Assembly: GCA_038823825.1 (NCBI GenBank)
Contig: JAWBCC010000003.1
Coordinates: forward strand, 1-32,000
Length of the DNA stretch: 32,000 bases
DNA from: Candidatus Hadarchaeales archaeon
Lineage (GTDB): Archaea > Hadarchaeota > Hadarchaeia > Hadarchaeales > Hadarchaeaceae
Direction: 5' to 3'
Shown here: positions 3-13,287 of the stretch, piece after piece
How positions within the stretch are numbered: the stretch's first letter is position 1
How the letters are laid out: the number at the start of each line of letters is the position of its first letter
Program-made: the position numbers and the translations under genes
Notes under the pieces: generated by a model
What the model was told of the DNA's origin: nothing
The model's input: the letters and a program-made list of their open reading frames with translations, nothing else
Databases searched by the model: none

Positions 3-3000
3 TCCGAGAACAGGTGGGAAAATGTTTCGAGTTTTCCCGCAACAGTAACAAACGCGAACGATAGACTTGCTTTCGACGGTACGTATTTGTATATGATTAG
101 AGGAGCGACCGATAGCAGTTTCTGGAGATATTCAGTCAAAACGATTCCGGCTTATTCCCTTAAATGGCAGCAAACAATTCCTCTGACGCTCTATGAGTCT
201 CCTGAACAGACATACGCCCAGCCGTACTCTCTTTCTCTTCTCGCAGGTGGGGTAACAAGTCTTGACAATATAAAATTCGCAGATGATAAACCCGCCAGCT
301 TCTCTCAAAGAAGATACATCTATGTTTATGAAAACAAAGGTAGAGGAACGGAAAATACAACGAGTACGAGTTTTGTTGATCTCGAGAATGCCAGAGTAAG
401 TGTTTCTGTCACCGATAATTCATACCTCATCATAAACTTCCACGCCGCTCACAATAGCTCAATGGCCGGCGACAAGGTTGAATTCAGGATAATGGTCGGA
501 ACCTACGTGGTTGCCTACGGTCACGGCGAGATGGGGGTTGCATCTCAGGATACAACGATATCGTTGACTAGGGCCTGGCGCGTGCCCCCCGGAAACTACA
601 CTGTCAGGGCACAATGGAGACGGGCTTCCGGGAGTGGAACACTCTGGTGTTGGGAGAGAAACATAACCGTCTGGGTAGTTCCGGAGAATGCTTTCCGAGT
701 ATTCTCAAACAGAGAGTGGTCAACAGTTTATGCCTCGGACTCGTTCTCTGATCTCTCCGGAATGGTCGCTCAGATTTCTGTATCTGAGGATTCTTACCTC
801 TTTATGAATTTCCATGCATCCTTCGACCATGCAGGAGCAGGAGGGAAAGTTGAGTTCAAACTGATGGTGGACGAAGAAAATGTCGCTTACGCATACGGAA
901 TGACCGCAACGGCTGGTCAAGATCTAATGGTCTCCTTAACCAGAGCTTACCAAGTCTCTCGGGGGACACACACAGTAAAAGTACAATGGAGGAGGGCAAG
1001 CGGTACCGGTACTGTGGCTTGTTGGGAGAGGAGTCTGAATGTTGTTGTCATTCCGGTTCGTGCATTGAGTGTATGGAGTAACAGAAATACCGAGACAAGT
1101 TCGACCTCCGGTTCAACCTGGGTTTCTCTTCCCGGAGCTTCTCTTTCATTCTCGACTCCAAGGGAATCAACTTTAGCCGTACAGTTCCACGCAAGCTTTA
1201 ACGTAAACGCTTCCGGGAACAAGCCAGAGTTCAGAATAATACTTGATGGTGACGAGAGCAACCCGTTGGCGATCGGATATGGATATATGGCTACGACCAG
1301 TCAGGATACCACTATCAGGCTTGTCGCAATGTCACGCGTGAGCGCAGGTGCTCACACGATTGCGGTTCAGTGGAGAGTTGCTTCGGGAACTGGAACCGCC
1401 TATTGTTGGGAGAAAAGCATAAACGCTGTGGCTCTTGAGAATCTCTTCGATTTTGAATTGCTTGGAGAAATCTCCAACATCCCGTTAGCCGACCGTTACA
1501 CGCTAGAAATGAAGTACAGGCTCTCAAGCGATTCCGACGGTTTTGTCGTATATGTGAAAAGCCCGCAGCCTCTTGTGACAGATAACACGGTTGCTCTTTG
1601 GCGCTTCGATGAGGGGAGTGGAGTTCAAGTCTTAGAGAGTAGCGGAAATGGACAGACGGGTTTGATATACGGTGTGAATGTTGGTGTACTCTGGTCAAGT
1701 GATTCCGTATTCGGGTACAGCTTAAACTTTACCGGCTTGGGAGGTTATGTCTTGGTTCCACACTCTTCCATCCTTGCTCCACCAGCGGGTTTCTCTCAAC
1801 TAACGGTTTCAGCTTGGATAAAAGTGCGCGAAGTGAGCGGTCATCATACAATCGTCACTAAACGCAGTTATGTCTGGGAGCCGACGAATGGATGGCAAAT
1901 GTATGTCGAGCCAGCTACGGATCCTGGTAAAGCAAAATTCTGCGTGATACTGAAATCAACTGGAGAAGGCTATTATGGTGTGGCGATTGACAATGCTGTG
2001 AATTTAAATGAATGGACTCATGTAGCATTTACTTACGATAATAACGGAGTCATCCGAGTTTATATCAATGGAGTTGACAGGACGTCAGAAGATTCATGGA
2101 ATTCGAGAGGAGGCGCTGGCAATGTTTTGAGCGCTCCAGACAATCTCTTCATCGGTTGTATAAACGGAACTTCCGAGTGGTTCATTGGATGGATAGATGA
2201 GGTGCGTATAGAGAACCGCGTTCTCACATCAGAAGAAATGGCTATCGAAGCTAGTCTAGAGCGGTTGTGGAGAAAAGTTGGAGAGCTCAGGGGCACTGAC
2301 TGGCAAAGCTTTACAAGGGTAGTCCCAGCAAATTCAGTTGAGAACGGAAGGATTTTGTTCAGGATAGTGGATATAGATCCGTTTTCCAAATCGCAGTCTG
2401 TTGACTTAGATATTGACTACATAAGAGTCTCCGGGTACCGCCTCTGGGAAAATCTAAAATTGAGAATTTATGGTTGTTCAATGAATGACGCCGAAAAAGT
2501 TTTCGTATACGTGTGGAATGGCAGAGAATGGGAAATCATTGGAACACTTCCGCAAGGCTCTCCCGGTTGGCTAACAGCCAATATTCCTTACCTGTATGCG
2601 GTCGGAACATCAGACCTCAAGATTCTCTACAAGTCCGAGGATGACAACGATGAAACGATGACAAAGGTTTGCTTAGACTATGTGGGCATAGGTGAAGGAA
2701 GTTCTTATTCGACTTCTGTCGAAGCATACATTCTGCTCAGTCTGGACGGCGAAAATTGGCAGGAATACGGCCCGTTCACAACTTTCCCTGTCGATCTTTC
2801 CTCTCTTCCACCGGCGAGATTTGTCAGATATCGGCTCAAACTTTTCTCGGATAGAGAAAATATGACGCCCATCGTGAGGAATGTGGAAATAAAAGTTGCT
2901 GCCTATACTGCCGACGAGAACATAGCGTGGGGAGGAATATTCTTCAATTCCTTCAGTGAAGATTATCTCTCACCCAACGGGATCGTCCTGCGGAAATCTG

Positions 3001-6000
3001 ATGGATCAAGAGCGAATGCGGTTCTTGCGACTGAGAACATAACAATCAGGATTAGAGCCTTCAGAGGGGATCTTACAGCTGTGAAGCTCCACGTGATAAC
3101 AGACTCGGGTGAAAACGTTTGGGAAATGAGTAGAACTCCTTCTGGTGCTTATGATTTCTGGACTAAAACCTTCCAGATGCGAGCAAACGAGAACTGGTCA
3201 TACTTCTTTGAGATCCGGGATGGGGACACCGTTGGATATTATGCCGATGACTCACTGAAGGATGGTGGTTCGGGGAGGAAATACGATTCTGAACAGGAAG
3301 CGAGATCGAATGCTTTCAGAATTCACGCACAGGCGCTTCCAACAGATCCGCAGGGAATGGTTATATACGAAGTGATGGTTGACAGGTTTTACGACGGCGA
3401 TCCTTCGAATAATAATCCATCCCAAAGCCCAGGACTTTACGATCCAAGGAGAGAAAATGGTAACTGGAAGTACTACTGGGGAGGAGATCTAAAAGGACTT
3501 ATCCAGAAACTTGACTATATCGCCGGAATGGGAGTTTCGGCAATCTGGATAACTCCGATTGTGAACAATATAGATAGAGCGAGCGAATATGACAACAGCA
3601 CCGGTTATCATGGCTACTGGGCAAAGGACTTCAAACAAATAGAGGAGCACTTTGGGACTTGGCAGGACGTTTATGATCTCGTCTCTGAGGCGAGAAAGAG
3701 GAACATCAGAATCATAATGGATTGGGCGCCAAATCACACGAGTCCGGCTTACTGGGGAGAGAATGGAGCTCTTTACGATAATGGAGTCTTCTGGACGGAT
3801 TATAGGAGAGAGTGGTTCACAGACGCTTTCTGGGCAAGGGAAAATTCAACTGTCAGCACAACCAGCACAACTTTTGTAGATCTTTCCGGCATGGCTTTGG
3901 ATGTTTTTATACATGAGAACTCGTATCTTCTTATAAACTTCCACGCCGCCCATAACATCAACACATGGGGAAAGGCAGAATTTCTCTTGCTCGTTGGAGA
4001 TACGGAGGTGGCAAAGGGTTACAGTCATATGGGACTGGGTGATGGGCAAGACACAACAGTTTCTCTCACACGAGCCTATTTCGTAACGCCCGGCAAATAC
4101 ACAGTTAAAGCGCAGTGGAGACTGGCGGAAGGCACAGGTACCGTCTACTGTTGGGAGAGAAGTCTTTCGGTTATGGTCGTGCCAGCATATTGGATAGTAA
4201 GAGACAATAGGGCGACGGACTGGGTCACAACAACCTCTACCTCCTTTGTTGATATACCCAACATGGCGTCGACAGTAACCGTCACAGAAAATTCATATCT
4301 GCTCGTAAATTTCCACATCTCACACAATGTTGATCACTCGAGTGGCGACGGAAAGGCGGAATTTCAGATCCAAGTTGGGACTGAAAACATTGCGATGGGT
4401 TACAGCAATTCGCCCTGGAAGCAGGACTTAACTCTATCTTTGACGGCTATTCGATTTGTAACGCCAGGAACGTACACGGTTAAAGCTAGGTGGAGATCAG
4501 TAAACGGGTATACCCTTGGTGCTTGGGAGAGAAGCCTCAACGTCGTTGCTATTCCCACTAGAGCTCTTAAAGTCGAGAATATAAGAAGCACAACTCTGAC
4601 ATCTACCACTAGCTCAACTTGGACGTCGCTCCCCAATGCATCCCTTTCCATATCTGTGCCTGAGAATGTAGTCTTAGCAATCAACTTCCACGCCGGATTT
4701 AACAACAATACTTCAGGAGCCAAGCCGCAGTTCATGCTCCGGGTCGATGGAAATCCTGTCGGTGTGGGATACAGCCGGATGGCTATGGCTAGCCAGGACA
4801 CCACTTTCAGGTTAGTCGCAGCAATCCCTGTTTCCGCCGGAAGTCATACGATCGACGTTCAGTGGCGTATTGAAAATGGTATAGGAATCGCATATTGTTG
4901 GGAAAGAAGTTTGAACGTTGTTGCCGTCACGAGAAACTTTAACGAGTTCACATGGAGCTGGGAGAATATCTTCAGACACAATGGAGATATAGACATGCAA
5001 GCCCAGGACGACAGGTGGAACATCCGTTACAGAAATCTGTTACAACTCGCGGATCTTAACCAGCTTAACCCGAGAGTGGACAACTATTTGAAAGAAGCCC
5101 TTAAGCTCTTCCTCGACGCCGGAATCGGGGGTCTAAGGATTGATGCGGCAAAGCATATGGATCCTGGATGGCTAAAGACTCTAGCGGACTTTGTCTATTC
5201 GGGCTGGGAGAACATATATATTATGCATGAATCGGTCGTCGAATTCTGGGATGAAACATATTGGGATGTTTGTCAATTCGATAACAACTACGGCATGCAC
5301 ATGATAAACACAGCATTGGCGTTCATAATCCGAGACGTTTTCGGCTGGAAATCTAGAAACATGTATGAGCTAGAATACTATGTCAACAAGCAATTCTCTT
5401 TCCCAGCCTCGGATATCCTTTGGAATCAAAAGGTCGTCAACGCTGTCGCCTGCCACGACTGGAGTAGATTCCGCTCGATGAACAAAAGCATGAGGGATTC
5501 AGAACTTGCGATAGGTTTTGTTCTCACTCTTCCTGGAATTCCGCTGGTATACTACGGCGAGGAGCAGTATATGTACAACGACAACATCAATCCGAATAAC
5601 GAGATAGGGGGAGACCCATATAACCGCGGAATGATGGTGGCATTCGACAACACTACCACGTACTATCGGCTGGTTAGAAAGCTCGCTGATCTTCGCAAAC
5701 TTAATCCGGCCTTAAGGTATGGAATAATTTCGACGAAATATGTGAGCGAAAATGTTTATGTTTTCCAACGAAAGTTCTTCAACGACGTAGTACTGGTTGC
5801 AATTAACCTTGGAGGAACAGACGTAAACCTCACGAACATCAGCGTAGAAATGCCAGACGACACGTATTCCGATTACTTAGGAGGTATTCTGGGCAACGGA
5901 AGAACGATAACCGTGCAGGGGGGCGTCATCTCATCTCTCACTTTGCCAGCAAGCTCGATGGGCGTCTGGTATTGCTTAACCGAAAACAACGAACCATGGC

Positions 6001-7178
6001 TTGGAGCGATAGATCCCGTTATGGGAAGGGCTGGAAACAAAGTAAGGGTGAGCGGTAAAGGTTTCGGCAAAACGCAGGGGCAGGTGATATTTGACAACGG
6101 AACTCAGAGATGGTATGCAACGATTATCGAATGGGCAGACGATCATGTTTACTTCCAAGTTCCGTCAGGCGTGGTTGTTCCCATTAACAAGCAGCATGTT
6201 GAAGTTTTCGTCAAGAGGGCCGACGGAAAGGAGAGCAATCGGATTCTATTCCAGTACTTAAAAGATAAGCTGGTCCTTGTTGTTCACAGGCTCGATAACA
6301 CGAAGGGCACAGAGCTGGAAACAACGATGGGCGAATTCCTCTTCATTACCGGTAGCGTGGCTGAGTACTCCAACTGGAGCGACAGGAGCGAGAATGCGGT
6401 TGGTCCGATGCTTTGTCCATATTGGGATAATTGGTTTGTTGTGACCGCAGTCCCGCGATCTACGTACATTGAGTTCAAGTTCATAAAGGCCAGACTCGGT
6501 GAAAGTGGAAGTTGGGAGAGCGGAAGCAACCACACATTTACGAGTCCTGAGAATGGCGTGCTATACAGACGCTCGCGGCCCGGTGGAGGGGCTAGTGGAT
6601 TCTCATTACCTCCAGGTAAGGAGTCCGGGGTGCAGAGCTTTACCCTGACCTCATCCGAGAATGTCAAGACTGAAAACGAAAACGTACCACCACTCTCACA
6701 GACCCAACCCTCAGAAAACGAAGTCACAGAAAACGAAGCTACATCATCCCCCGCGATATCGATAAGCAGCTCTGACTCTGGAGTTCTATCGTGGTTCATT
6801 CCAGAGAATGTGGAAGTTGCACGATACGAGGTAATGATTGACGATGATCCATCTTTCTCATCTCCAATAATCATTTCCGTTGTTGGTAACTCGCTTGACG
6901 TTCTAGCTCTTGGACTAGAAGGAGGACAGTACTTCTGGAGAGTTAGGGCGATTCTATCCGACGGCACAGAAATTTTGAGTGAAGTCGGAATGTTTGAGAT
7001 AAAAGCTTCTACCAAGACATCGCAGAAGCCGCTCTGGATACTACCGACCGGAATCGTGTTTGCGGCTCTGATTTCAGTGTTCATGCTCAAAGTTTTCATG
7101 AGAAAAAGAAATGGACGCTTTTTGCGTTACAGGCTCCATTCGATCCGCAAAAGTTTTGATGAAAAAATAAAAGCTTGA
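3..7178 (+). CDS. Giant membrane-anchored multidomain GH13 protein. It has a complete CGTase-like A-B-C-D(IPT)-E(CBM20) core, a LamG-like module and six copies of an unassigned ~124-aa module. Probably 5'-truncated by the window edge.
   Basis: One uninterrupted ORF. The frame is open from nt 3, with no stop before the TTG at 87, and the upstream residues ..DRLAFDGTY read as protein. GH13 regions: I IIMDWAPNHTS (3711-3743), II GGLRIDAAKH (~5127-5159), III YIMHES (~5217-5237), IV AVACHDWSRF (~5442-5471). Other matches: YWGGDLKGL..GVSAIWITP; IPT-like PWLGAIDPVMGRAGNKVRVSGKGFG; CBM20-like GSVAEYSNW..IEFKFIK..WESGSNHTFTSP. The C-terminus has a hydrophobic helix followed by a basic tail. Confidence 0.9.
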   Translation, partial: SENRWENVSSFPATVTNANDRLAFDGTYLYMIRGATDSSFWRYSVKTIPAYSLKWQQTIPLTLYESPEQTYAQPYSLSLLAGGVTSLDNIKFADDKPASFSQRRYIYVYENKGRGTENTTSTSFVDLENARVSVSVTDNSYLIINFHAAHNSSMAGDKVEFRIMVGTYVVAYGHGEMGVASQDTTISLTRAWRVPPGNYTVRAQWRRASGSGTLWCWERNITVWVVPENAFRVFSNREWSTVYASDSFSDLSGMVAQISVSEDSYLFMNFHASFDHAGAGGKVEFKLMVDEENVAYAYGMTATAGQDLMVSLTRAYQVSRGTHTVKVQWRRASGTGTVACWERSLNVVVIPVRALSVWSNRNTETSSTSGSTWVSLPGASLSFSTPRESTLAVQFHASFNVNASGNKPEFRIILDGDESNPLAIGYGYMATTSQDTTIRLVAMSRVSAGAHTIAVQWRVASGTGTAYCWEKSINAVALENLFDFELLGEISNIPLADRYTLEMKYRLSSDSDGFVVYVKSPQPLVTDNTVALWRFDEGSGVQVLESSGNGQTGLIYGVNVGVLWSSDSVFGYSLNFTGLGGYVLVPHSSILAPPAGFSQLTVSAWIKVREVSGHHTIVTKRSYVWEPTNGWQMYVEPATDPGKAKFCVILKSTGEGYYGVAIDNAVNLNEWTHVAFTYDNNGVIRVYINGVDRTSEDSWNSRGGAGNVLSAPDNLFIGCINGTSEWFIGWIDEVRIENRVLTSEEMAIEASLERLWRKVGELRGTDWQSFTRVVPANSVENGRILFRIVDIDPFSKSQSVDLDIDYIRVSGYRLWENLKLRIYGCSMNDAEKVFVYVWNGREWEIIGTLPQGSPGWLTANIPYLYAVGTSDLKILYKSEDDNDETMTKVCLDYVGIGEGSSYSTSVEAYILLSLDGENWQEYGPFTTFPVDLSSLPPARFVRYRLKLFSDRENMTPIVRNVEIKVAAYTADENIAWGGIFFNSFSEDYLSPNGIVLRKSDGSRANAVLATENITIRIRAFRGDLTAVKLHVITDSGENVWEMSRTPSGAYDFWTKTFQMRANENWSYFFEIRDGDTVGYYADDSLKDGGSGRKYDSEQEARSNAFRIHAQALPTDPQGMVIYEVMVDRFYDGDPSNNNPSQSPGLYDPRRENGNWKYYWGGDLKGLIQKLDYIAGMGVSAIWITPIVNNIDRASEYDNSTGYHGYWAKDFKQIEEHFGTWQDVYDLVSEARKRNIRIIMDWAPNHTSPAYWGENGALYDNGVFWTDYRREWFTDAFWARENSTVSTTSTTFVDLSGMALDVFIHENSYLLINFHAAHNINTWGKAEFLLLVGDTEVAKGYSHMGLGDGQDTTVSLTRAYFVTPGKYTVKAQWRLAEGTGTVYCWERSLSVMVVPAYWIVRDNRATDWVTTTSTSFVDIPNMASTVTVTENSYLLVNFHISHNVDHSSGDGKAEFQIQVGTENIAMGYSNSPWKQDLTLSLTAIRFVTPGTYTVKARWRSVNGYTLGAWERSLNVVAIPTRALKVENIRSTTLTSTTSSTWTSLPNASLSISVPENVVLAINFHAGFNNNTSGAKPQFMLRVDGNPVGVGYSRMAMASQDTTFRLVAAIPVSAGSHTIDVQWRIENGIGIAYCWERSLNVVAVTRNFNEFTWSWENIFRHNGDIDMQAQDDRWNIRYRNLLQLADLNQLNPRVDNYLKEALKLFLDAGIGGLRIDAAKHMDPGWLKTLADFVYSGWENIYIMHESVVEFWDETYWDVCQFDNNYGMHMINTALAFIIRDVFGWKSRNMYELEYYVNKQFSFPASDILWNQKVVNAVACHDWSRFRSMNKSMRDSELAIGFVLTLPGIPLVYYGEEQYMYNDNINPNNEIGGDPYNRGMMVAFDNTTTYYRLVRKLADLRKLNPALRYGIISTKYVSENVYVFQRKFFNDVVLVAINLGGTDVNLTNISVEMPDDTYSDYLGGILGNGRTITVQGGVISSLTLPASSMGVWYCLTENNEPWLGAIDPVMGRAGNKVRVSGKGFGKTQGQVIFDNGTQRWYATIIEWADDHVYFQVPSGVVVPINKQHVEVFVKRADGKESNRILFQYLKDKLVLVVHRLDNTKGTELETTMGEFLFITGSVAEYSNWSDRSENAVGPMLCPYWDNWFVVTAVPRSTYIEFKFIKARLGESGSWESGSNHTFTSPENGVLYRRSRPGGGASGFSLPPGKESGVQSFTLTSSENVKTENENVPPLSQTQPSENEVTENEATSSPAISISSSDSGVLSWFIPENVEVARYEVMIDDDPSFSSPIIISVVGNSLDVLALGLEGGQYFWRVRAILSDGTEILSEVGMFEIKASTKTSQKPLWILPTGIVFAALISVFMLKVFMRKRNGRFLRYRLHSIRKSFDEKIKA
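357..1436 (+). repeat. Protein-level repeat block 1: three tandem copies (~124 aa each) of an unassigned beta-rich module
   Basis: Copies are anchored at aa 96, 220 and 345 ([FW]VDL/SLP). Each contains SYLxINFHA, K.EF, QD.T..L(T/V), G.(Y/H)T(V/I)..QWR and G(T/S)GT..CWE(R/K)S. Confidence 0.8.
1581..2240 (+). other. LamG / concanavalin-like lectin module (Laminin_G_3-like) within the giant protein
   Basis: DNTVALWRFDEGSG..GYSLNFTG..GYVLVP..FSQLTVSAWIK..EWTHVAFTYD..IRVYINGV..LFIGC..WIDEVRIENRVLTSEEM matches the pattern typical of LamG_3 domains. Confidence 0.6.
3351..5975 (+). other. GH13 catalytic domain (A/B/C) of CGTase type, interrupted by repeat block 2
   Basis: Collinear by eye with Bacillus circulans 251 CGTase from VIYEVMVDRFYDGD through region IV and domain C. 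About 370 extra residues lie between the equivalents of CGTase residues ~169 and ~174. Confidence 0.8.
3858..4928 (+). repeat. Protein-level repeat block 2: three further copies of the same ~124-aa module, collinear with block 1 (1~4, 2~5, 3~6)
   Basis: Anchors are at aa 1263, 1387 and 1512, with the same period as block 1. Copy-specific signatures are shared pairwise with block 1. Confidence 0.8.
5994..6566 (+). other. IPT/TIG-like domain followed by CBM20-type starch-binding domain (CGTase domains D and E)
   Basis: By-eye alignment to CGTase domains D/E. The tail motif IEFKF.K....W(E)(S/G)GSNHTFT(S/A)P is conserved. Confidence 0.75.
7029..7100 (+). other. C-terminal transmembrane anchor of the giant protein
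   Basis: PLWILPTGIVFAALISVFMLKVF is followed by MRKRNGRFLRYRLHSIRK. There is no PGF-CTERM-type PGF motif. Confidence 0.6.
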
Positions 7179-10393: not shown

Positions 10394-10783
10394 TTAGGCT
10401 TCCATCATTCGGATGAGTTCCAGCGTGCGTCTTTCTATTCTGTCTTTGGTTTCCTCTTCAGTTGCGGCTCCGGTCAGGAGAAGCCGGTAATCCTGCAAGT
10501 CTTCGATAAGGAGATCTACAACATCGATGTCTAGCAGACCGGCATGAATGGTGATTTTTAGGGTAAAGAAAGCCTTGAATATCGCATCTCTTCCTTTTTT
10601 CCAGCATTTCCAAGCCGCGGGCTGTTTTACGCCCAACCTTTTAGAAATCTCCTCGAAGGTCAGCTCTGGGTTACGAGATTTCAAGAGAAGTGCTCTAAAT
10701 GTGCGTTTTTTGAGGTATGAGCGTTTGAGAAGCTCCCGGACGAAAAGACTTTCCTCGACTCCAGCACTTGATCTCTTTTTCAA
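10394..10783 (-). CDS. Small HTH protein, Tfx / sigma-70 region 4 / LuxR-like (129 aa)
   Basis: LKKRTFRALLLKSRNPELTFEEISKRLGVKQPAAWKCWKKGRDAIFKA follows the Tfx-type pattern. TTG start is preceded by GGGAGA. Third gene of the operon. Confidence 0.5.
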   Translation of the reverse strand: MKKRSSAGVEESLFVRELLKRSYLKKRTFRALLLKSRNPELTFEEISKRLGVKQPAAWKCWKKGRDAIFKAFFTLKITIHAGLLDIDVVDLLIEDLQDYRLLLTGAATEEETKDRIERRTLELIRMMEA

Positions 10784-10822
10784 GGTTCTCCCATTTTAAT
10801 TCCAATTTTTGGAAGTAAAAAG

Positions 10823-11719
10823 CTATCTCTTTCGTAAGAATATCTTAGCGAGTCTTTCTCGCAGAGTCTCTCGGTTTGCCATCCTCACTATCTGCGCATT
10901 GATTGGACTGCTCCAAATCGCGGCTAGCCGAAGAGCCTTGCTTGCAGCAGCGAGAATCTGCCTAGGAACACCCTTGCTAACCTTGTAGATCTCTTGAAAA
11001 CCGTCGGCCGTTATGGGTCCACTCATAAAATCTCGCTCTTCTCTAGAGCAATAGCGCATTCTGGCTATTAGGAGTTCTCTGACTTCCGGCAGGGTGAGAG
11101 GGCGAAGTTTCATACGAAAATAAACTCTATCTTTGAGAGCAGGGATTTTTTCCAAAAAATTCTCCATTCTTTTTTCTTCTCCGTTTAAAAGAAGCGAAAT
11201 TCCTGGCAAATCAGCCAAAACTCGGAAAAATTCGCCCAATTCTTTAAAATTTGCCGTGCTTTCCGGGACATCGTCGACGATTATCGCCAGCTTCTCCTTC
11301 TGTTCAATCCCCCATTTTCTAAGAACTTCGAACATTTTGACGGAATCCATATTGGAGTCAAGTTCCAAGCCCAAGATTATCGCTCGGAGGAATTCTTCCG
11401 CAGATCGATATGCGGCTCCGTGAATCATGACAGGAATCACTTGTCTTGCTGGATCTTGGAAAACCACGTTTTCCTCCCGCAGAGCGGCTGTTAGGAATTT
11501 ACACACTGCGGTTTTTCCCATCCCTAAACCGCCGGTCAAAACGGCCACTCGTCCCTCCATAAGAACCTCCTTCAATTTTATCAGCTCTTCGCGTTGTGAC
11601 GGGACAAAAGCCTCCGGCGCGGGAAGATCTGGAGTAAATGGGTCTCTTTCCAGCCCCCACACGTGAAGATAAATTTCAAGTCTGTAGTCCTTTCCGAGCT
11701 TCTCCTGCCAGATCGTCAT
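10823..11719 (-). CDS. AAA+ ATPase, ExeA/AAA_22- and Orc1/Cdc6-like, 298 aa, without a winged-helix domain
   Basis: N-terminal WGLERDPFTP (ExeA-like 'fGL..PF'). Walker A GGLGMGKT, Walker B LAIIVDDV, lid motif SKGVPRQILAAASKALRLAA. ATG 11719 overlaps the upstream stop as ATGA, so the ORF-track start at 11794 is rejected. Confidence 0.7.
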   Translation of the reverse strand: MTIWQEKLGKDYRLEIYLHVWGLERDPFTPDLPAPEAFVPSQREELIKLKEVLMEGRVAVLTGGLGMGKTAVCKFLTAALREENVVFQDPARQVIPVMIHGAAYRSAEEFLRAIILGLELDSNMDSVKMFEVLRKWGIEQKEKLAIIVDDVPESTANFKELGEFFRVLADLPGISLLLNGEEKRMENFLEKIPALKDRVYFRMKLRPLTLPEVRELLIARMRYCSREERDFMSGPITADGFQEIYKVSKGVPRQILAAASKALRLAAIWSSPINAQIVRMANRETLRERLAKIFLRKR

Positions 11720-12423
11720 TCGACCACTTTTATCTTTATTTCGTAACCTAACTCTGTTTTTTGTAGATATCCGAGCGCTTCCATCCTTTCGCAAAATGTT
11801 CTGACTACGGGTTCTGGTGACTTTGACTGAACCACAAGCTCTTTTAGAGAAAACTTATTTAAAACGAGCGCCGCCGAAAGAATTTCGCCAAAAGCTACTC
11901 TTTGAGCAATACCTGACGGAGAAAGGTCATTTAGAATTTTTTTCCTAGTTATTTTTTCCTGTTCTTCGATTTTTTCTTCTAAAATCTCTTTTTTCTCAGA
12001 AACTTCTTTAAATTCCGAGCATTTTCGACAAACCGTCATTAAATTTCCTTCAATTATGCCGAGTCCGGGGTCCTTCTCTTTCAGTGCGAGATCTTCGGAA
12101 CTTCCACAAATCCTGCAGCGGTATCCATCTCGCACGAAAATTGCTCGCTTTACGAGCTCGTGATCGTTCTTACAATGCGTGAAAACAAAATCGAGGAAAG
12201 CTCTGAGTCCTTTTTCGTAATCGGTTTCAGAAGAAACAGGAGAAATTTGTGCTTCTTTTCTCATTAAGCGGGTTATTTCACTCGCTGGAATCCTTCTGTG
12301 ACCTCCTCCAATTCTCACAATTTTTATTTTTCCCTCCCTTTCCCACCTTCTTATCGTGTTCGGGTGAACTCCCAAGAGAGATGAAGCTTCTCCTATTTTG
12401 TACAATTTCTCACTAAAGTTCAT
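11716..12423 (-). CDS. Composite DNA-binding protein: excisionase/MerR-type HTH, degenerate HNH-like zinc ribbon, coiled coil and C-terminal winged-helix-like region (235 aa)
   Basis: YKIGEASSLLGVHPNTIRRWEREGKIKIVRIGGGHRRI matches the HTH_17/excisionase pattern. RDGYRCRICG..LALKEKDP..GNLMTVCRKCSEFK keeps CxxC..CxxC and the Asn but lacks both HNH histidines. Contains a Glu/Lys-rich helix. Confidence 0.6.
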   Translation of the reverse strand: MNFSEKLYKIGEASSLLGVHPNTIRRWEREGKIKIVRIGGGHRRIPASEITRLMRKEAQISPVSSETDYEKGLRAFLDFVFTHCKNDHELVKRAIFVRDGYRCRICGSSEDLALKEKDPGLGIIEGNLMTVCRKCSEFKEVSEKKEILEEKIEEQEKITRKKILNDLSPSGIAQRVAFGEILSAALVLNKFSLKELVVQSKSPEPVVRTFCERMEALGYLQKTELGYEIKIKVVE

Positions 12424-12446
12424 CAAAATTTATTTACGAAATCTAA

Positions 12447-12455
12447 CTATTTAAG
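12447..12455 (-). promoter_or_regulatory. TATA-like box (CTTAAATAG on the minus strand) about 26 nt upstream of ATG 12423
   Basis: Position only. It implies a leaderless operon transcript. Confidence 0.35.
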
Positions 12456-12474
12456 ACTTTTTCTAACAATGTGG

Positions 12475-12488
12475 TTAAATTTTGGCAA
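12475..12488 (+). promoter_or_regulatory. Orphan copy of the 14-nt motif TTAAATTTTGGCAA (promoter-like or operator)
   Basis: Differs by 1 nt from the copy at 12566-12579. No annotated gene lies downstream before the second copy. Confidence 0.3.
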
Positions 12489-12565
12489 GTTTGATAGAAT
12501 GTGACATGAGGTCAGAGCCCCGAAGAAATCATCAAATCTAACCGAATTCAACAAAACCACAATTG

Positions 12566-12579
12566 TTAAATTTTGTCAA
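12566..12579 (+). promoter_or_regulatory. TTAAATTTTGTCAA: TATA-like box about 26 nt upstream of the PHP gene ATG
   Basis: The box centre plus ~26 nt falls at about 12597, and the ATG is at 12598. Confidence 0.4.
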
Positions 12580-12597
12580 ATCTTAAGTTAGAGAACA

Positions 12598-13287
12598 ATG
12601 AAAGCAGATCTGCACGTGCATACAGAATTCTCCGATGGCAGGGATCCGCCAGAGGTAATGATAGAAGCGGCAGAGGCTCGCGGCCTAAAGCTTTTAGCTA
12701 TAACGGATCATGGACCAGCCCTACACGTTGGCATGAAAGAAAACGAGATCTCTGGCTACCTCTCCACACTTGAAAATCTAAGGGAGAATGCGAAGCTGAA
12801 ACTGCTTGTCGGAATAGAGGCCAACGTCTTAAACGAGTCTGGTGATATAGACATTGAGGAAGAAACCAGGGAAAAATTGGATATTTTAGTTCTCGGCATA
12901 CACAGGCTATGGTTTGTTTCTGATCCAAGGGAAATGGCTCTTGCCTATTTGAGGTCCCTCGTGAACGCAATCAAGAAGCACAAAATCGATGTGGTTGCTC
13001 ACCCATTTCAATTTCACGGAGATCTTTCAAGATTTTTGACGATAGACGAAATCAGAGAGCTTCTCGAGGTAGCCGCCAATTGCGGAACAGCCATCGAGGT
13101 CAATGAGAAATACAGGGCGCCAGGAGAGGATTTCTATCGTGCTTGTCTTGAGAATGGAGTCATGCTGAGTGTAGGGACGGATTCTCACCGCGCCGAAAGC
13201 GTTGGGAGGCTTGACTGGGTTTCAGGAATGCTCGAGAAAATAGGGGTATCAGAAGGAGATCTTTTATACACCCGTTTTCTCCGTTAA
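12598..13287 (+). CDS. PHP-family metal-dependent phosphoesterase (histidinol-phosphatase-like, COG1387-type)
   Basis: N-terminal MKADLHVHTEFSDG..ITDHGP, followed by further His/Asp motifs (GIH, AHP, GTDSH). Confidence 0.75.
   Translation: MKADLHVHTEFSDGRDPPEVMIEAAEARGLKLLAITDHGPALHVGMKENEISGYLSTLENLRENAKLKLLVGIEANVLNESGDIDIEEETREKLDILVLGIHRLWFVSDPREMALAYLRSLVNAIKKHKIDVVAHPFQFHGDLSRFLTIDEIRELLEVAANCGTAIEVNEKYRAPGEDFYRACLENGVMLSVGTDSHRAESVGRLDWVSGMLEKIGVSEGDLLYTRFLR

Follow-up and report, generated by a model that had tools for sequence, protein, structure and literature searches.

A conserved operon of the Hadarchaeota with a promoter repeat array, a putative helix-turn-helix adaptor protein and an Orc/Cdc6-like AAA+ ATPase

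Introduction

The Hadarchaeota, a phylum of uncultivated archaea from the subsurface, have genomes of about 1 Mb. In one of their contigs (JAWBCC010000003.1 of assembly GCA_038823825.1, the 32,000 nucleotides (nt) of which at positions 1 to 32,000 are called the window here), three genes on the minus strand are found between glmS and a gene for a PHP phosphoesterase. Gene 1 encodes a helix-turn-helix (HTH) protein, gene 2 an AAA+ ATPase and gene 3 a further small HTH protein. The locus raises the question of what such a trio is for, and whether it is a horizontally acquired, AT-rich cassette, as a preliminary description of the sequence had proposed. The analysis below indicates that the trio is an old operon present in nearly all Hadarchaeota and no recent AT-rich island. 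With moderate confidence, its core is interpreted as a vertically inherited and self-contained module of the phylum, consisting of a repeat array, an adaptor protein and an AAA+ ATPase. This reading draws on the conservation of the loci, the domain anatomy of gene 1, the fold class of gene 2, the repeat arrays that co-vary and are co-swapped with the HTH, and an operator upstream of gene 3. Since an operon of three families specific to the lineage is kept in nearly every genome of about 1 Mb, it is likely to serve a basic, unannotated, DNA-related function.

Results

The operon and its conservation

The source genome bin (Hadarchaeota; Hadesarchaea) comprises 1.05 Mb at 45.95% G+C. The elements of the locus are:

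11716-12423, minus strand: gene 1, 235 amino acids (aa), adaptor protein with a MerR-type HTH, a degenerate HNH ribbon, a charged linker and a C-terminal winged-helix-like domain
10823-11719, minus strand: gene 2, 298 aa, AAA+ ATPase, ExeA/AAA_22 by sequence family and Orc/Cdc6-MuB-TnsC-like by fold
10394-10783, minus strand: gene 3, 129 aa, TTG start, small HTH protein of an orphan family
11716-11719, minus strand: ATGA stop/start overlap of genes 1 and 2, read from the sequence
12424-12597, no strand assigned: divergent intergenic region of 174 bp, 29.9% G+C, containing the promoters of gene 1 and of the PHP gene

The three minus-strand reading frames of the preliminary description were borne out by the list of open reading frames (ORFs), and the ATGA overlap, the 39-nt spacer between genes 2 and 3 and the TTG start of gene 3 were all given correctly in it. 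The ATPase gene of this operon is found once per genome in 34 of the 41 genomes of the order, and as a single copy in 58 of 66 Hadarchaeota genomes (23 of 26 among the high-quality ones); gene 3 was found in 37 of the 41. All 39 related loci from species-representative genomes belong to the Hadarchaeota. The order gene 1-gene 2-gene 3 recurs among these loci, and the 4-nt overlap of genes 1 and 2 is kept in most of them. With dozens of homologues in conserved order for all three, the genes themselves are far beyond chance.

The ATPase clade of the Hadarchaeota is also sharply set apart from the remaining ExeA-like proteins. An exhaustive profile search with the ATPase gave 12 clusters at E<=1e-30, followed by a plateau at about 1e-20 formed by the generic ExeA-like family, which numbers 2371 representatives at E<=1e-10. 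The family of gene 3 comprises 205 proteins; a Pfam domain was assigned to 0 of the 120 that were listed, and their source names are mostly 'hypothetical protein' or absent. Between the two closest genomes, the nonsynonymous divergence (dN) was 0.10 for the ATPase, 0.09 for the HTH and 0.28 for the HNH-like region; synonymous sites are saturated between these genomes, which leaves dN as the usable measure and no dN/dS ratio. A literature search found no paper on this operon or on an HTH_17 plus AAA_22 cassette.

The composition of the locus was then compared with that of the genome. The trio as a whole has 44.2% G+C, which is the 24th percentile of the 2-kb windows of the genome, and the block is thus not AT-rich as had been stated. 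A recount did reproduce the earlier hand count of 38 G+C in 120 nt at 11881-12000. Low G+C is limited to gene 1 (40.0%, 2.6th percentile) and to the 174-bp intergenic region. Because the composition percentiles are normal and synteny spans the phylum, a recent horizontal insertion or AT-rich island is rejected. The idea of a horizontally acquired cassette in the preliminary description fails on both observations, since the composition does not depart from that of the genome and the genes form a single-copy syntenic cluster across the phylum.

Repeat arrays in the gene 1 promoter vary together with the HTH

The promoter of gene 1 has short direct repeats in every lineage; they are read on the coding strand, lie on both sides of the TATA box and reach the start codon. 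In the window, the array is the following:

12437-12542, minus strand: repeat array in the gene 1 promoter, three GTTAGA copies flanking the TATA box CTTAAATAG (12455-12447)

The three copies lie at 12542-12537, 12467-12462 and 12447-12442, and they form the sole cluster of three GTTAGA within 120 nt in the 1.05-Mb genome. Similarly, in the 1.03-Mb contig of a relative (G010), clusters of at least five copies are confined to two places, the gene 1 promoter and a duplicate 1.1 kb upstream. The type of repeat was found to follow the type of HTH. Class A loci, with the HTH signature HPNTxRRW and always with an HNH domain or its remnant, carry 3-9 phased GTTAR copies per 200 nt (background 0.1-0.4 per 200 nt) and 0-2 DGACA copies. 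Class B loci, with the signature C[TN]KTIQRW or SVRTLQRR and no HNH, carry 2-6 DGACA and 0-2 GTTAR copies. The spacing between repeats peaks at 10, 20-22 and 30-35 nt, a phasing of 10-11 bp. Other lineages have arrays of their own: GATAAAA x6 in family f5, GTAGG-N7-CCTAC x5 in f2 and GTAGAC/GACAAC in f4, and a copy on a mobile element has ATGTNAAAA x6-7.

A comparison of two loci, L041 and L050, is particularly informative. It can be seen that, first, DNA identity is 78-83% in the flanking regions and through genes 2 and 3 and the 3' part of gene 1, and the two ATPases are sisters in the tree (98/89). Secondly, the two loci are non-homologous over exactly the array and the N-terminal HTH, with or without the HNH, and each of the swapped segments is closest to loci with more distant ATPases. 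It follows that array and HTH were exchanged as one unit, which supports a pairing of a cognate site with its reader. The co-swap also implies that no other site in the genome is indispensable as a target of the HTH. When the genome was scanned for a wider regulon of gene 1 or gene 3, no additional array or operator came up. The HTH of gene 1 thus appears, from these sequence comparisons, to recognise the phased repeat array in its own promoter. BldC, a protein of the same HTH family, binds variable numbers of direct repeats as head-to-tail multimers (PMC5859096).

The same arrangement might be expected of a partition-like maintenance system captured from a plasmid, in which the array would be a centromere-like site, gene 1 the adaptor that binds it and gene 2 a MuB/ParA-like ATP switch that sits on DNA until the adaptor releases it. 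Here, a core promoter flanked by phased repeats leads into a coupled operon with the adaptor gene first and the NTPase gene second, one site is present per genome, and site and HTH specificity are swapped as a unit, as expected of determinants of the incompatibility type. Promoter arrays, however, are also explained by autoregulation alone. We regard a partition-like system as unlikely, and further evidence on it is given with the ATPase fold and the mobile-element relatives below.

Several observations were made on the surroundings of the arrays. One genus (L059:2651-5220, and also L053, L054, L057 and L058) has 2-3 GTTAR arrays in tandem on the strand of gene 1, at intervals of about 1.2 kb. 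DUF4367 genes on the opposite strand sit between these tandem arrays, with two paralogues of 276-280 aa in L059; the region just 5' of gene 1 is a hotspot of duplication and insertion in this genus. In G010, the spacer between hypE and gene 1 (L120:13880-14845; G010:C1 about 833,880-834,845) is about 950 bp long, has 41-60% G+C and no convincing ORF, and is bounded by two near-identical units of array plus TATA promoter. An Rfam scan of this ORF-less spacer, taken at 1.1 kb, gave no match, and it may be a decayed DUF4367 gene or contain an unannotated RNA transcribed from the second array promoter. In the window itself, TTAAATTTTG[G/T]CAA occurs twice (12475-12488 and 12566-12579), about 91 nt apart, each copy being paired with a copy of GTTAGATTT. 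The second TTAAATTTTG copy is the TATA region of the PHP gene and the first has no downstream gene on that strand. The paired pattern resembles the duplicated array-promoter units of the relatives.

Gene 1 consists of interchangeable N-terminal parts and a constant C-terminal domain

The anatomy of gene 1 was derived from an alignment of 21 orthologues and a survey of 38 gene 1 proteins. These consist of an invariant N-terminal HTH, an optional HNH domain, a variable linker and a conserved C-terminal domain of about 80 aa. In the window, the domains are:

12256-12405, minus strand: class A HTH, residues 7-56 of gene 1, recognition helix HPNTIRRW, matched by Pfam MerR, HTH_17 and TIGR01764
12004-12165, minus strand: dead HNH, about residues 87-140, with the sequence CRICGSSEDLALKEKDPGLGIIEGNLMTVCRKCSE against CxxCG..VHHKDGTSRNDPDNLVTLCQKCH of the relatives
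11719-11928, minus strand: C-terminal winged-helix-like domain, residues 166-235, assigned by alignment, hhalign and profile matches of analogues

The excisionase/MerR-type HTH that had been proposed for the N-terminus was confirmed by Pfam MerR (1.5e-11, 44.3 bits against a cut-off of 28.2) and HTH_17 (5.5e-11, 43 against 27). It also passes the excisionase model TIGR01764 (39.4 bits, cut-off 28.8) and stays below the cut-off of the BldC subfamily model NF033787 (40.4 bits against 77). Its best sequence match in the Protein Data Bank is BldC (6ama/6amk, 1e-8).

The second domain is a dead HNH zinc ribbon, as described before: the cysteine pairs CRIC...CRKC are kept, and the catalytic HH and the terminal His are lost. 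Gene 1 of the window reads LALKEK...CRKCSE where relatives, which retain the intact motif VHHKDGTSRNDPDNLVTLCQKCH, read VHHKDG...CQKCH. Pfam HNH (PF01844) gave no match for the window protein, while the relative L057 passes it with 24.0 bits (cut-off 21.4), and the HNH region of the window protein has weak matches to IscB (1.4e-4) and to an HNH family of the phrog set (1.2e-5). Among the 38 surveyed proteins, the HNH looks intact in 18, is degenerate in 6 (the window included) and is deleted in 14. From these sequences, an HNH lying between two DNA-binding domains is taken as the ancestral state and has become dispensable; some genera keep it intact, others have lost it altogether, and the copy in the window is dead.

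A nuclease domain next to an ATPase raises the possibility of a defence or abortive-infection module, as had been considered in the preliminary description, or of a toxin-antitoxin module. The intact HNH in 18 of 38 proteins would fit it, and so would weak matches of the HNH region to ZorE and IscB, a match of the HTH to mad1 of PADLOC (5e-15), and one relative that adjoins an MmeI-type restriction-modification (R-M) gene and an SNF2/PLD gene. However, the nuclease is dead in the window and deleted in 14 of 38 proteins with the rest of the module kept, the HTH is the one part matched in PADLOC, the match of the ATPase being no better than noise (best DndD, E 0.0016) and gene 3 having none, and the composition is normal. 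A near-universal, single-copy syntenic core with the ATPase at a fixed locus in 58 of 66 genomes is, moreover, the opposite of the pattern of a defence island. A defence role therefore seems extremely improbable.

The region after the HNH had been described as a Glu/Lys coiled coil. In relatives this region is a variable linker rich in Pro, Lys and Glu, without a conserved coiled coil, and this assignment was dropped. The winged-helix-like tail fared better, since analogues of the C-terminal domain match winged-helix models. In families f2 and f4, the ATPase is preceded by a protein whose N-terminal HTH is unrelated to that of gene 1 and whose linker is acidic; aligned with gene 1 by hhalign, these analogues are similar over the C-terminal 79 columns only (probability 95%, E 2.9e-8), and their C-terminal domain matches the HTH_24, IclR and TrmB models. 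In L076 (1052-2571), and also in P0059, P0060 and P0065, the ATPase has a pair of CxxC zinc ribbons at its N-terminus. The partner encoded upstream in this metagenomic type (134 aa) is reduced to a linker and the C-terminal winged-helix domain, without an HTH. The C-terminal domain is thus the sole domain of gene 1 kept in all lineages. Because the C-termini are homologous across families and the N-termini are unrelated or absent, the constant partner of the ATPase would be the C-terminal winged-helix domain, with an interchangeable head for sequence-specific DNA binding. The C-terminal domain is presumed, from its sequence conservation, to be the part that docks on the ATPase or binds DNA.

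Gene 2 encodes an AAA+ ATPase with an Orc/Cdc6-like fold

The motifs used below are located as follows:

about 11510-11533, minus strand: Walker A of gene 2, sequence motif
11270-11275, minus strand: Walker B (DD) of gene 2, sequence motif

The ExeA-type N-terminus and the Walker motifs reported earlier are present: the motif WGLxxDPF, Walker A, Walker B and the arginines are intact, and Pfam AAA_22 is passed with 34.0 bits against a cut-off of 27. In the alignment of the ATPase family, Walker A, Walker B, R198, R220 and R253 are invariant. The protein has 37.2 bits (2e-9) on TIGR03015, the model of the XrtA/PEP-CTERM-associated ExeA-type proteins, against a cut-off of 324.5, and it matches phrog_296, 'DNA transposition protein' (2.6e-11). 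Joint Genome Institute (JGI) annotations of its homologues read 'ExeA'.

The AlphaFold model of gene 2 (predicted local distance difference test (pLDDT) 87, predicted template-modelling score (pTM) 0.81) was compared with known structures by Foldseek. The top folds were Aeropyrum ORC2 1w5t (E 6e-11, query-normalised template-modelling score (TMq) 0.65), 1w5s and the ORC1-DNA complex 2v1u, together with Sulfolobus 2qby (Cdc6/Orc1) and Pyrobaculum 1fnn, and the archaeal Orc set has TMq values of 0.62-0.65. The model also matches the MuB-DNA filament 8xvb (target-normalised score (TMt) 0.70) and TnsC (7rzy and 7m99). Between beta2 and beta3 it has two helices, the arrangement of the initiator-specific motif. 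A library of viral structures gave just generic AAA+ proteins, e.g. RFC and clamp loaders. The earlier reading of gene 2 as an Orc/Cdc6-like protein without a DNA-binding domain of its own was therefore upheld: the fold is Orc/Cdc6-like and the chain ends after the lid, with no winged helix. Orc/Cdc6, MuB and TnsC are AAA+ proteins that are loaded on double-stranded DNA under the control of sequence-specific partners.

Such a fold next to repeats could mean that genes 1 and 2 are an accessory initiator, that is, a split initiator or helicase loader acting at an AT-rich region that bears iterons. Orc1/Cdc6 with its origin recognition boxes (ORBs), plasmid Rep-iteron origins and the captured oriC3/WhiP origin of Sulfolobus are the systems to compare with. 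Archaeal Orc/Cdc6 proteins are the best fold matches of gene 2, the repeats lie in the 29.9% G+C intergenic region adjoining the genes, and relatives are found in plasmid-like contexts. On the other hand, the genome possesses two canonical Orc1/Cdc6 genes on contig C2, with 469 and 290 bits on the Orc model TIGR02928, where gene 2 itself scores 10.7 bits (E 0.094; C3:11366-11542; cut-off 181.3, or 181 when rounded). The repeats overlap the TATA box and the start codon, as an operator would, and no obvious unwinding element is seen between the repeat sets. The position of the module relative to the orc1/cdc6 genes could be read in two genomes that have both on one contig, where the distance to the main orc1/cdc6 gene is 28 kb and 51 kb:

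G010:C1, no strand assigned: orc1/cdc6 at 752 kb and 803 kb, module at 832 kb
G025:C2, no strand assigned: orc1/cdc6 and module at 266 kb and 318 kb

In G010, the minimum of the cumulative GC skew (at about 785-790 kb, a weak skew signal) falls between the orc genes and not at the module. We consider an initiator role very improbable.

Two more specific candidates were set aside. Gene 2 as a stand-in for a missing Orc was rejected, since two canonical Orc1/Cdc6 genes are present. A replication origin at the locus is disfavoured by the GC-skew minimum, which lies 45 kb from the module in the 1.03-Mb contig of the relative; with a signal this weak, it was kept as a rival of low probability.

Gene 3 and its putative operator

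Gene 3 had been described as a Tfx-like HTH protein. That it is a small HTH protein agrees with its predicted tri-helical HTH; no Tfx match was found in Pfam or NCBIfam at E<=1, however, and the fold matches are to generic HTH sub-domains of the sigma-r4, AsnC and YlxM type. Its profile matches (HTH_24, DUF134 and sigma-70 r4) are all sub-threshold. In the structural model (pLDDT 91), the tri-helical HTH is followed by three long helices, and the structure search found no full-length match, the best E being 0.3. Taken together with gene 1 and gene 2, the domain-level reading of the trio held for the HTH, the dead HNH ribbon, the winged-helix tail, the ExeA/Orc-like AAA+ protein and the small HTH protein, and did not hold for Tfx and the coiled coil.

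Upstream of gene 3, the following element was found:

10798-10816, no strand assigned: palindrome ACTTCC-N7-GGAAT, ACTTCCAAAAATTGGAAT, between the TATA-like CTTTTTA and the gene 3 start; presumed operator

In f1, f2 and f4, the three families covered by this comparison out of the four that carry gene 3 (f5 being the fourth), the form [GA][CT]TTCC-N7-GGAA[AG][CT] is placed after a TATA-like box and ahead of the start of gene 3. The palindrome with an A/T spacer has one other match in the genome, inside a coding ORF of 644 aa. A palindrome between TATA box and start is in the typical position of an archaeal repressor operator. The position and strand of gene 3 relative to genes 1 and 2 vary between families, and in f5 genomes without genes 1 and 2 it adjoins topoisomerase VI. 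Because its position and strand vary and it persists without genes 1 and 2, gene 3 is independent and no obligate subunit of the module. It is probably, as judged from its upstream sequence, an autoregulated HTH repressor with a promoter of its own.

Relatives of the gene pair in mobile-element-like DNA

In family f5, the pair of genes 1 and 2 is found between the DNA ligase (lig) and adenylate kinase (adk) genes of G028. The ATPase of G028 groups with the metagenomic P0069 and P0070 (100/100 in the tree), and the P0069 and P0070 loci have the same cassette of array, HTH_17 gene and AAA_22 gene with a 4-nt overlap, surrounded by genes for VirB4/TraG-like, T2SSE, T2SSF, RNase H, TFIIB and ParG-like proteins. 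The cassette is thus found in plasmid- or conjugative-element-like DNA as well, and this makes it more likely that the copy on the chromosome arose by capture long ago. That copy is probably a maintenance-type module, domesticated in the distant past. The preliminary suggestion of a plasmid or virus replication/partition remnant can accordingly be retained at deep evolutionary time, given the distant relatives among VirB4/TraG-, T2SSE/F-, TFIIB- and ParG-like genes and the presence/absence polymorphism of the pair in one family.

These contexts bear on the partition-like system introduced above. In addition to the relatives in conjugative-element-like surroundings, the filament formers MuB and TnsC are among the top fold matches of gene 2, and orc1/cdc6 is 28 kb and 51 kb away from the module in two genomes. 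But no partition NTPase of the AAA+ type is known, some f5 genomes lack the pair, and the proximity to the origin comes from two related genomes (with a chance of about 5-9% each) and may be synteny. A stronger form of the idea would make the cassette an unrecognised class of partition-type DNA-maintenance locus, with a centromere-like array, a BldC-like/winged-helix adaptor and an Orc/MuB-like AAA+ protein as the DNA-bound ATP switch, carried by archaeal conjugative-type elements and fixed across the phylum. We consider this rather unlikely.

Two further observations concern these loci. In G031, the lig-adk junction contains a G+C-rich stretch of about 230 nt (L132:3518-3748) with no ORF, and neither a tRNA nor an Rfam match was found in this gap. 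In the metagenomic L078 (2252-10861), a pair of genes 1 and 2 is found near a Hjc-like resolvase and an AAA_22-MarR fusion (363 aa), and also near an MmeI-type methyltransferase/endonuclease (R-M) and an SNF2/PLD helicase, and AGGAAA-type repeats lie upstream; the context looks like a defence island or a mobile element.

Neighbouring genes

The gene divergent from gene 1 in the window is:

12598-13287, plus strand: PHP phosphoesterase of the PolX-PHP/YcdX type (Pfam PHP 3.1e-17; PRK08392 1.2e-42; PolX 3au2 1e-13; YcdX 3e-12)

In nearly all families a PHP gene has stayed close to the module, a few kb away at most, through the rearrangements; in f2 and f4 it is directly downstream of gene 2. The usual layout in f1 is hycI<-PHP / hypA->hypE->gene 1-gene 2-gene 3 (e.g. 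L050:2234-5087). These data raise the possibility that the module is a regulator of its neighbours, i.e. of the PHP gene, the hyp/hycI hydrogenase-maturation genes or the DUF4367 genes, with the ATPase as a signal-dependent co-regulator. The persistent linkage of PHP, the f1 layout that places hycI, PHP, hypA and hypE by the module, the extra array copies beside DUF4367 genes in one genus and one GTTAGA copy of the window about 24 nt upstream of the PHP TATA box all point in this direction. In most f1 genomes, however, the array follows hypE instead of lying at a hyp or PHP promoter, neither PHP nor hyp genes adjoin the copies of f5 and of mobile elements, and a joint swap of HTH and array would break an external regulon. 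A regulator of the neighbours is accordingly held to be quite improbable, and the link between PHP and the module may reflect shared synteny and not shared function.

In most f1 loci, the PHP gene is co-operonic with the gene for the hydrogenase maturation protease HycI (4-nt spacing). We know of no prior description of an operonic association of a PolX-type PHP protein with HycI. Elsewhere in the window, an ORF of 2363 aa (87-7178) has alpha-amylase, laminin-G-like, CBM20 and amylase C-terminal domains.

Discussion

A proposed mechanism and the points that weigh against it

In the self-contained module that we favour, the BldC/Xis-type HTH of gene 1 would bind the direct repeats of the promoter, probably head-to-tail, and this binding would both repress the operon and mark a single locus in the genome. 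The C-terminal winged-helix domain of gene 1 would partner with gene 2, which is envisaged as an Orc/Cdc6-MuB-TnsC-like AAA+ switch without a sequence-specific DNA-binding domain, translationally coupled to gene 1. Genes 1 and 2 could then form an ATP-dependent nucleoprotein complex resembling a split ORC-like protein, with the winged helix and the AAA+ part on separate chains. Gene 3 would repress from its own promoter and palindromic operator, apart from genes 1 and 2.

Several points weigh against this interpretation. DNA binding by gene 1, its interaction with gene 2, the ATPase activity of gene 2, autoregulation and the cellular role are what we infer from the observed features. The array of the window is weak, with three copies against 5-9 in relatives, and the winged-helix call for gene 1 rests on profile matches of its analogues. 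The ATPases of f1 have DD in Walker B where those of f2 and f4 and the generic ExeA proteins have DE, and from this residue ATP hydrolysis by the f1 proteins may be slow. By sequence the ATPase is an ExeA-type protein, and to our knowledge no DNA role has been demonstrated for that family. The lig-adk junction that holds the pair in G028 is cleanly without it in the congeneric G031, and because of this absence the pair is not universally essential. Finally, a module whose sole specific site is its own promoter could be a mere autoregulated regulator.

Comparison with known systems

By sequence, the family closest to gene 2 is ExeA/GspA (COG3267; TIGR03015), with which it shares the N-terminal [FW]GLxxxPF motif and the AAA_22 core. 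Unlike those proteins, gene 2 is soluble, with no transmembrane or peptidoglycan-binding part and no GspB or secretin context, its neighbours being glmS, PHP and hyp genes.

Gene 1 resembles BldC and Xis in its HTH family, and the repeat-binding mode of BldC would, by analogy, fit the phased arrays described here. BldC/Xis proteins, however, are single-domain proteins of about 50-70 aa, whereas gene 1 adds an HNH, a linker, a winged helix and a coupled ATPase. Recombination has repeatedly exchanged the specificity of the adaptor, that is, the HTH with its cognate array, which provides protein-DNA pairs open to direct test, the class A HTH and GTTAG on the one hand and the class B HTH and GACA on the other. 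Even if the module proved to be an autoregulated regulator only, it would be an archaeal example of direct repeats bound in the manner of BldC, and of an HNH nuclease that decays step by step inside a conserved protein.

The organisation of type II and type III partition cassettes (parC-parMR and tubC-tubRZ) is similar in having a phased promoter array, an adaptor and a co-transcribed NTPase, in the order of tubC-tubR-tubZ. It differs in that the NTPase here is an AAA+ protein and not of the actin, tubulin or ParA fold, and in that the locus is chromosomal. This comparison draws on established knowledge of such cassettes and serves as a lead and not as a test. If the module were a maintenance or partition device, an AAA+ motor would be added to the ParA, actin and tubulin types.

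With MuB, TnsC and TniB, gene 2 has in common the AAA_22 family, the phrog_296 match and the folds of the MuB filament and TnsC. In those systems too, the ATPase has no specific DNA-binding domain of its own and is steered by a sequence-specific partner. In contrast, no TniQ or transposon ends are found near the module, no transposase was found in the locus or in the 39 related loci, and the locus is fixed and single-copy across the phylum.

The closest structural likeness is to Orc1/Cdc6, which provides the best match for the AAA+ base and lid of gene 2 and shares the pair of helices between beta2 and beta3; both systems also include a winged helix and repeated DNA elements beside the gene. 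In the Hadarchaeota module, however, the winged helix is on the separate, coupled gene 1, which bears a sequence-specific HTH in addition, gene 2 fails the Orc hidden Markov model (HMM), and the GC skew, a weak signal in one relative, does not point to the locus. The module can thus be considered a compact natural case of an ORC-like ATPase whose DNA-recognition parts are placed on a separate, modular adaptor.

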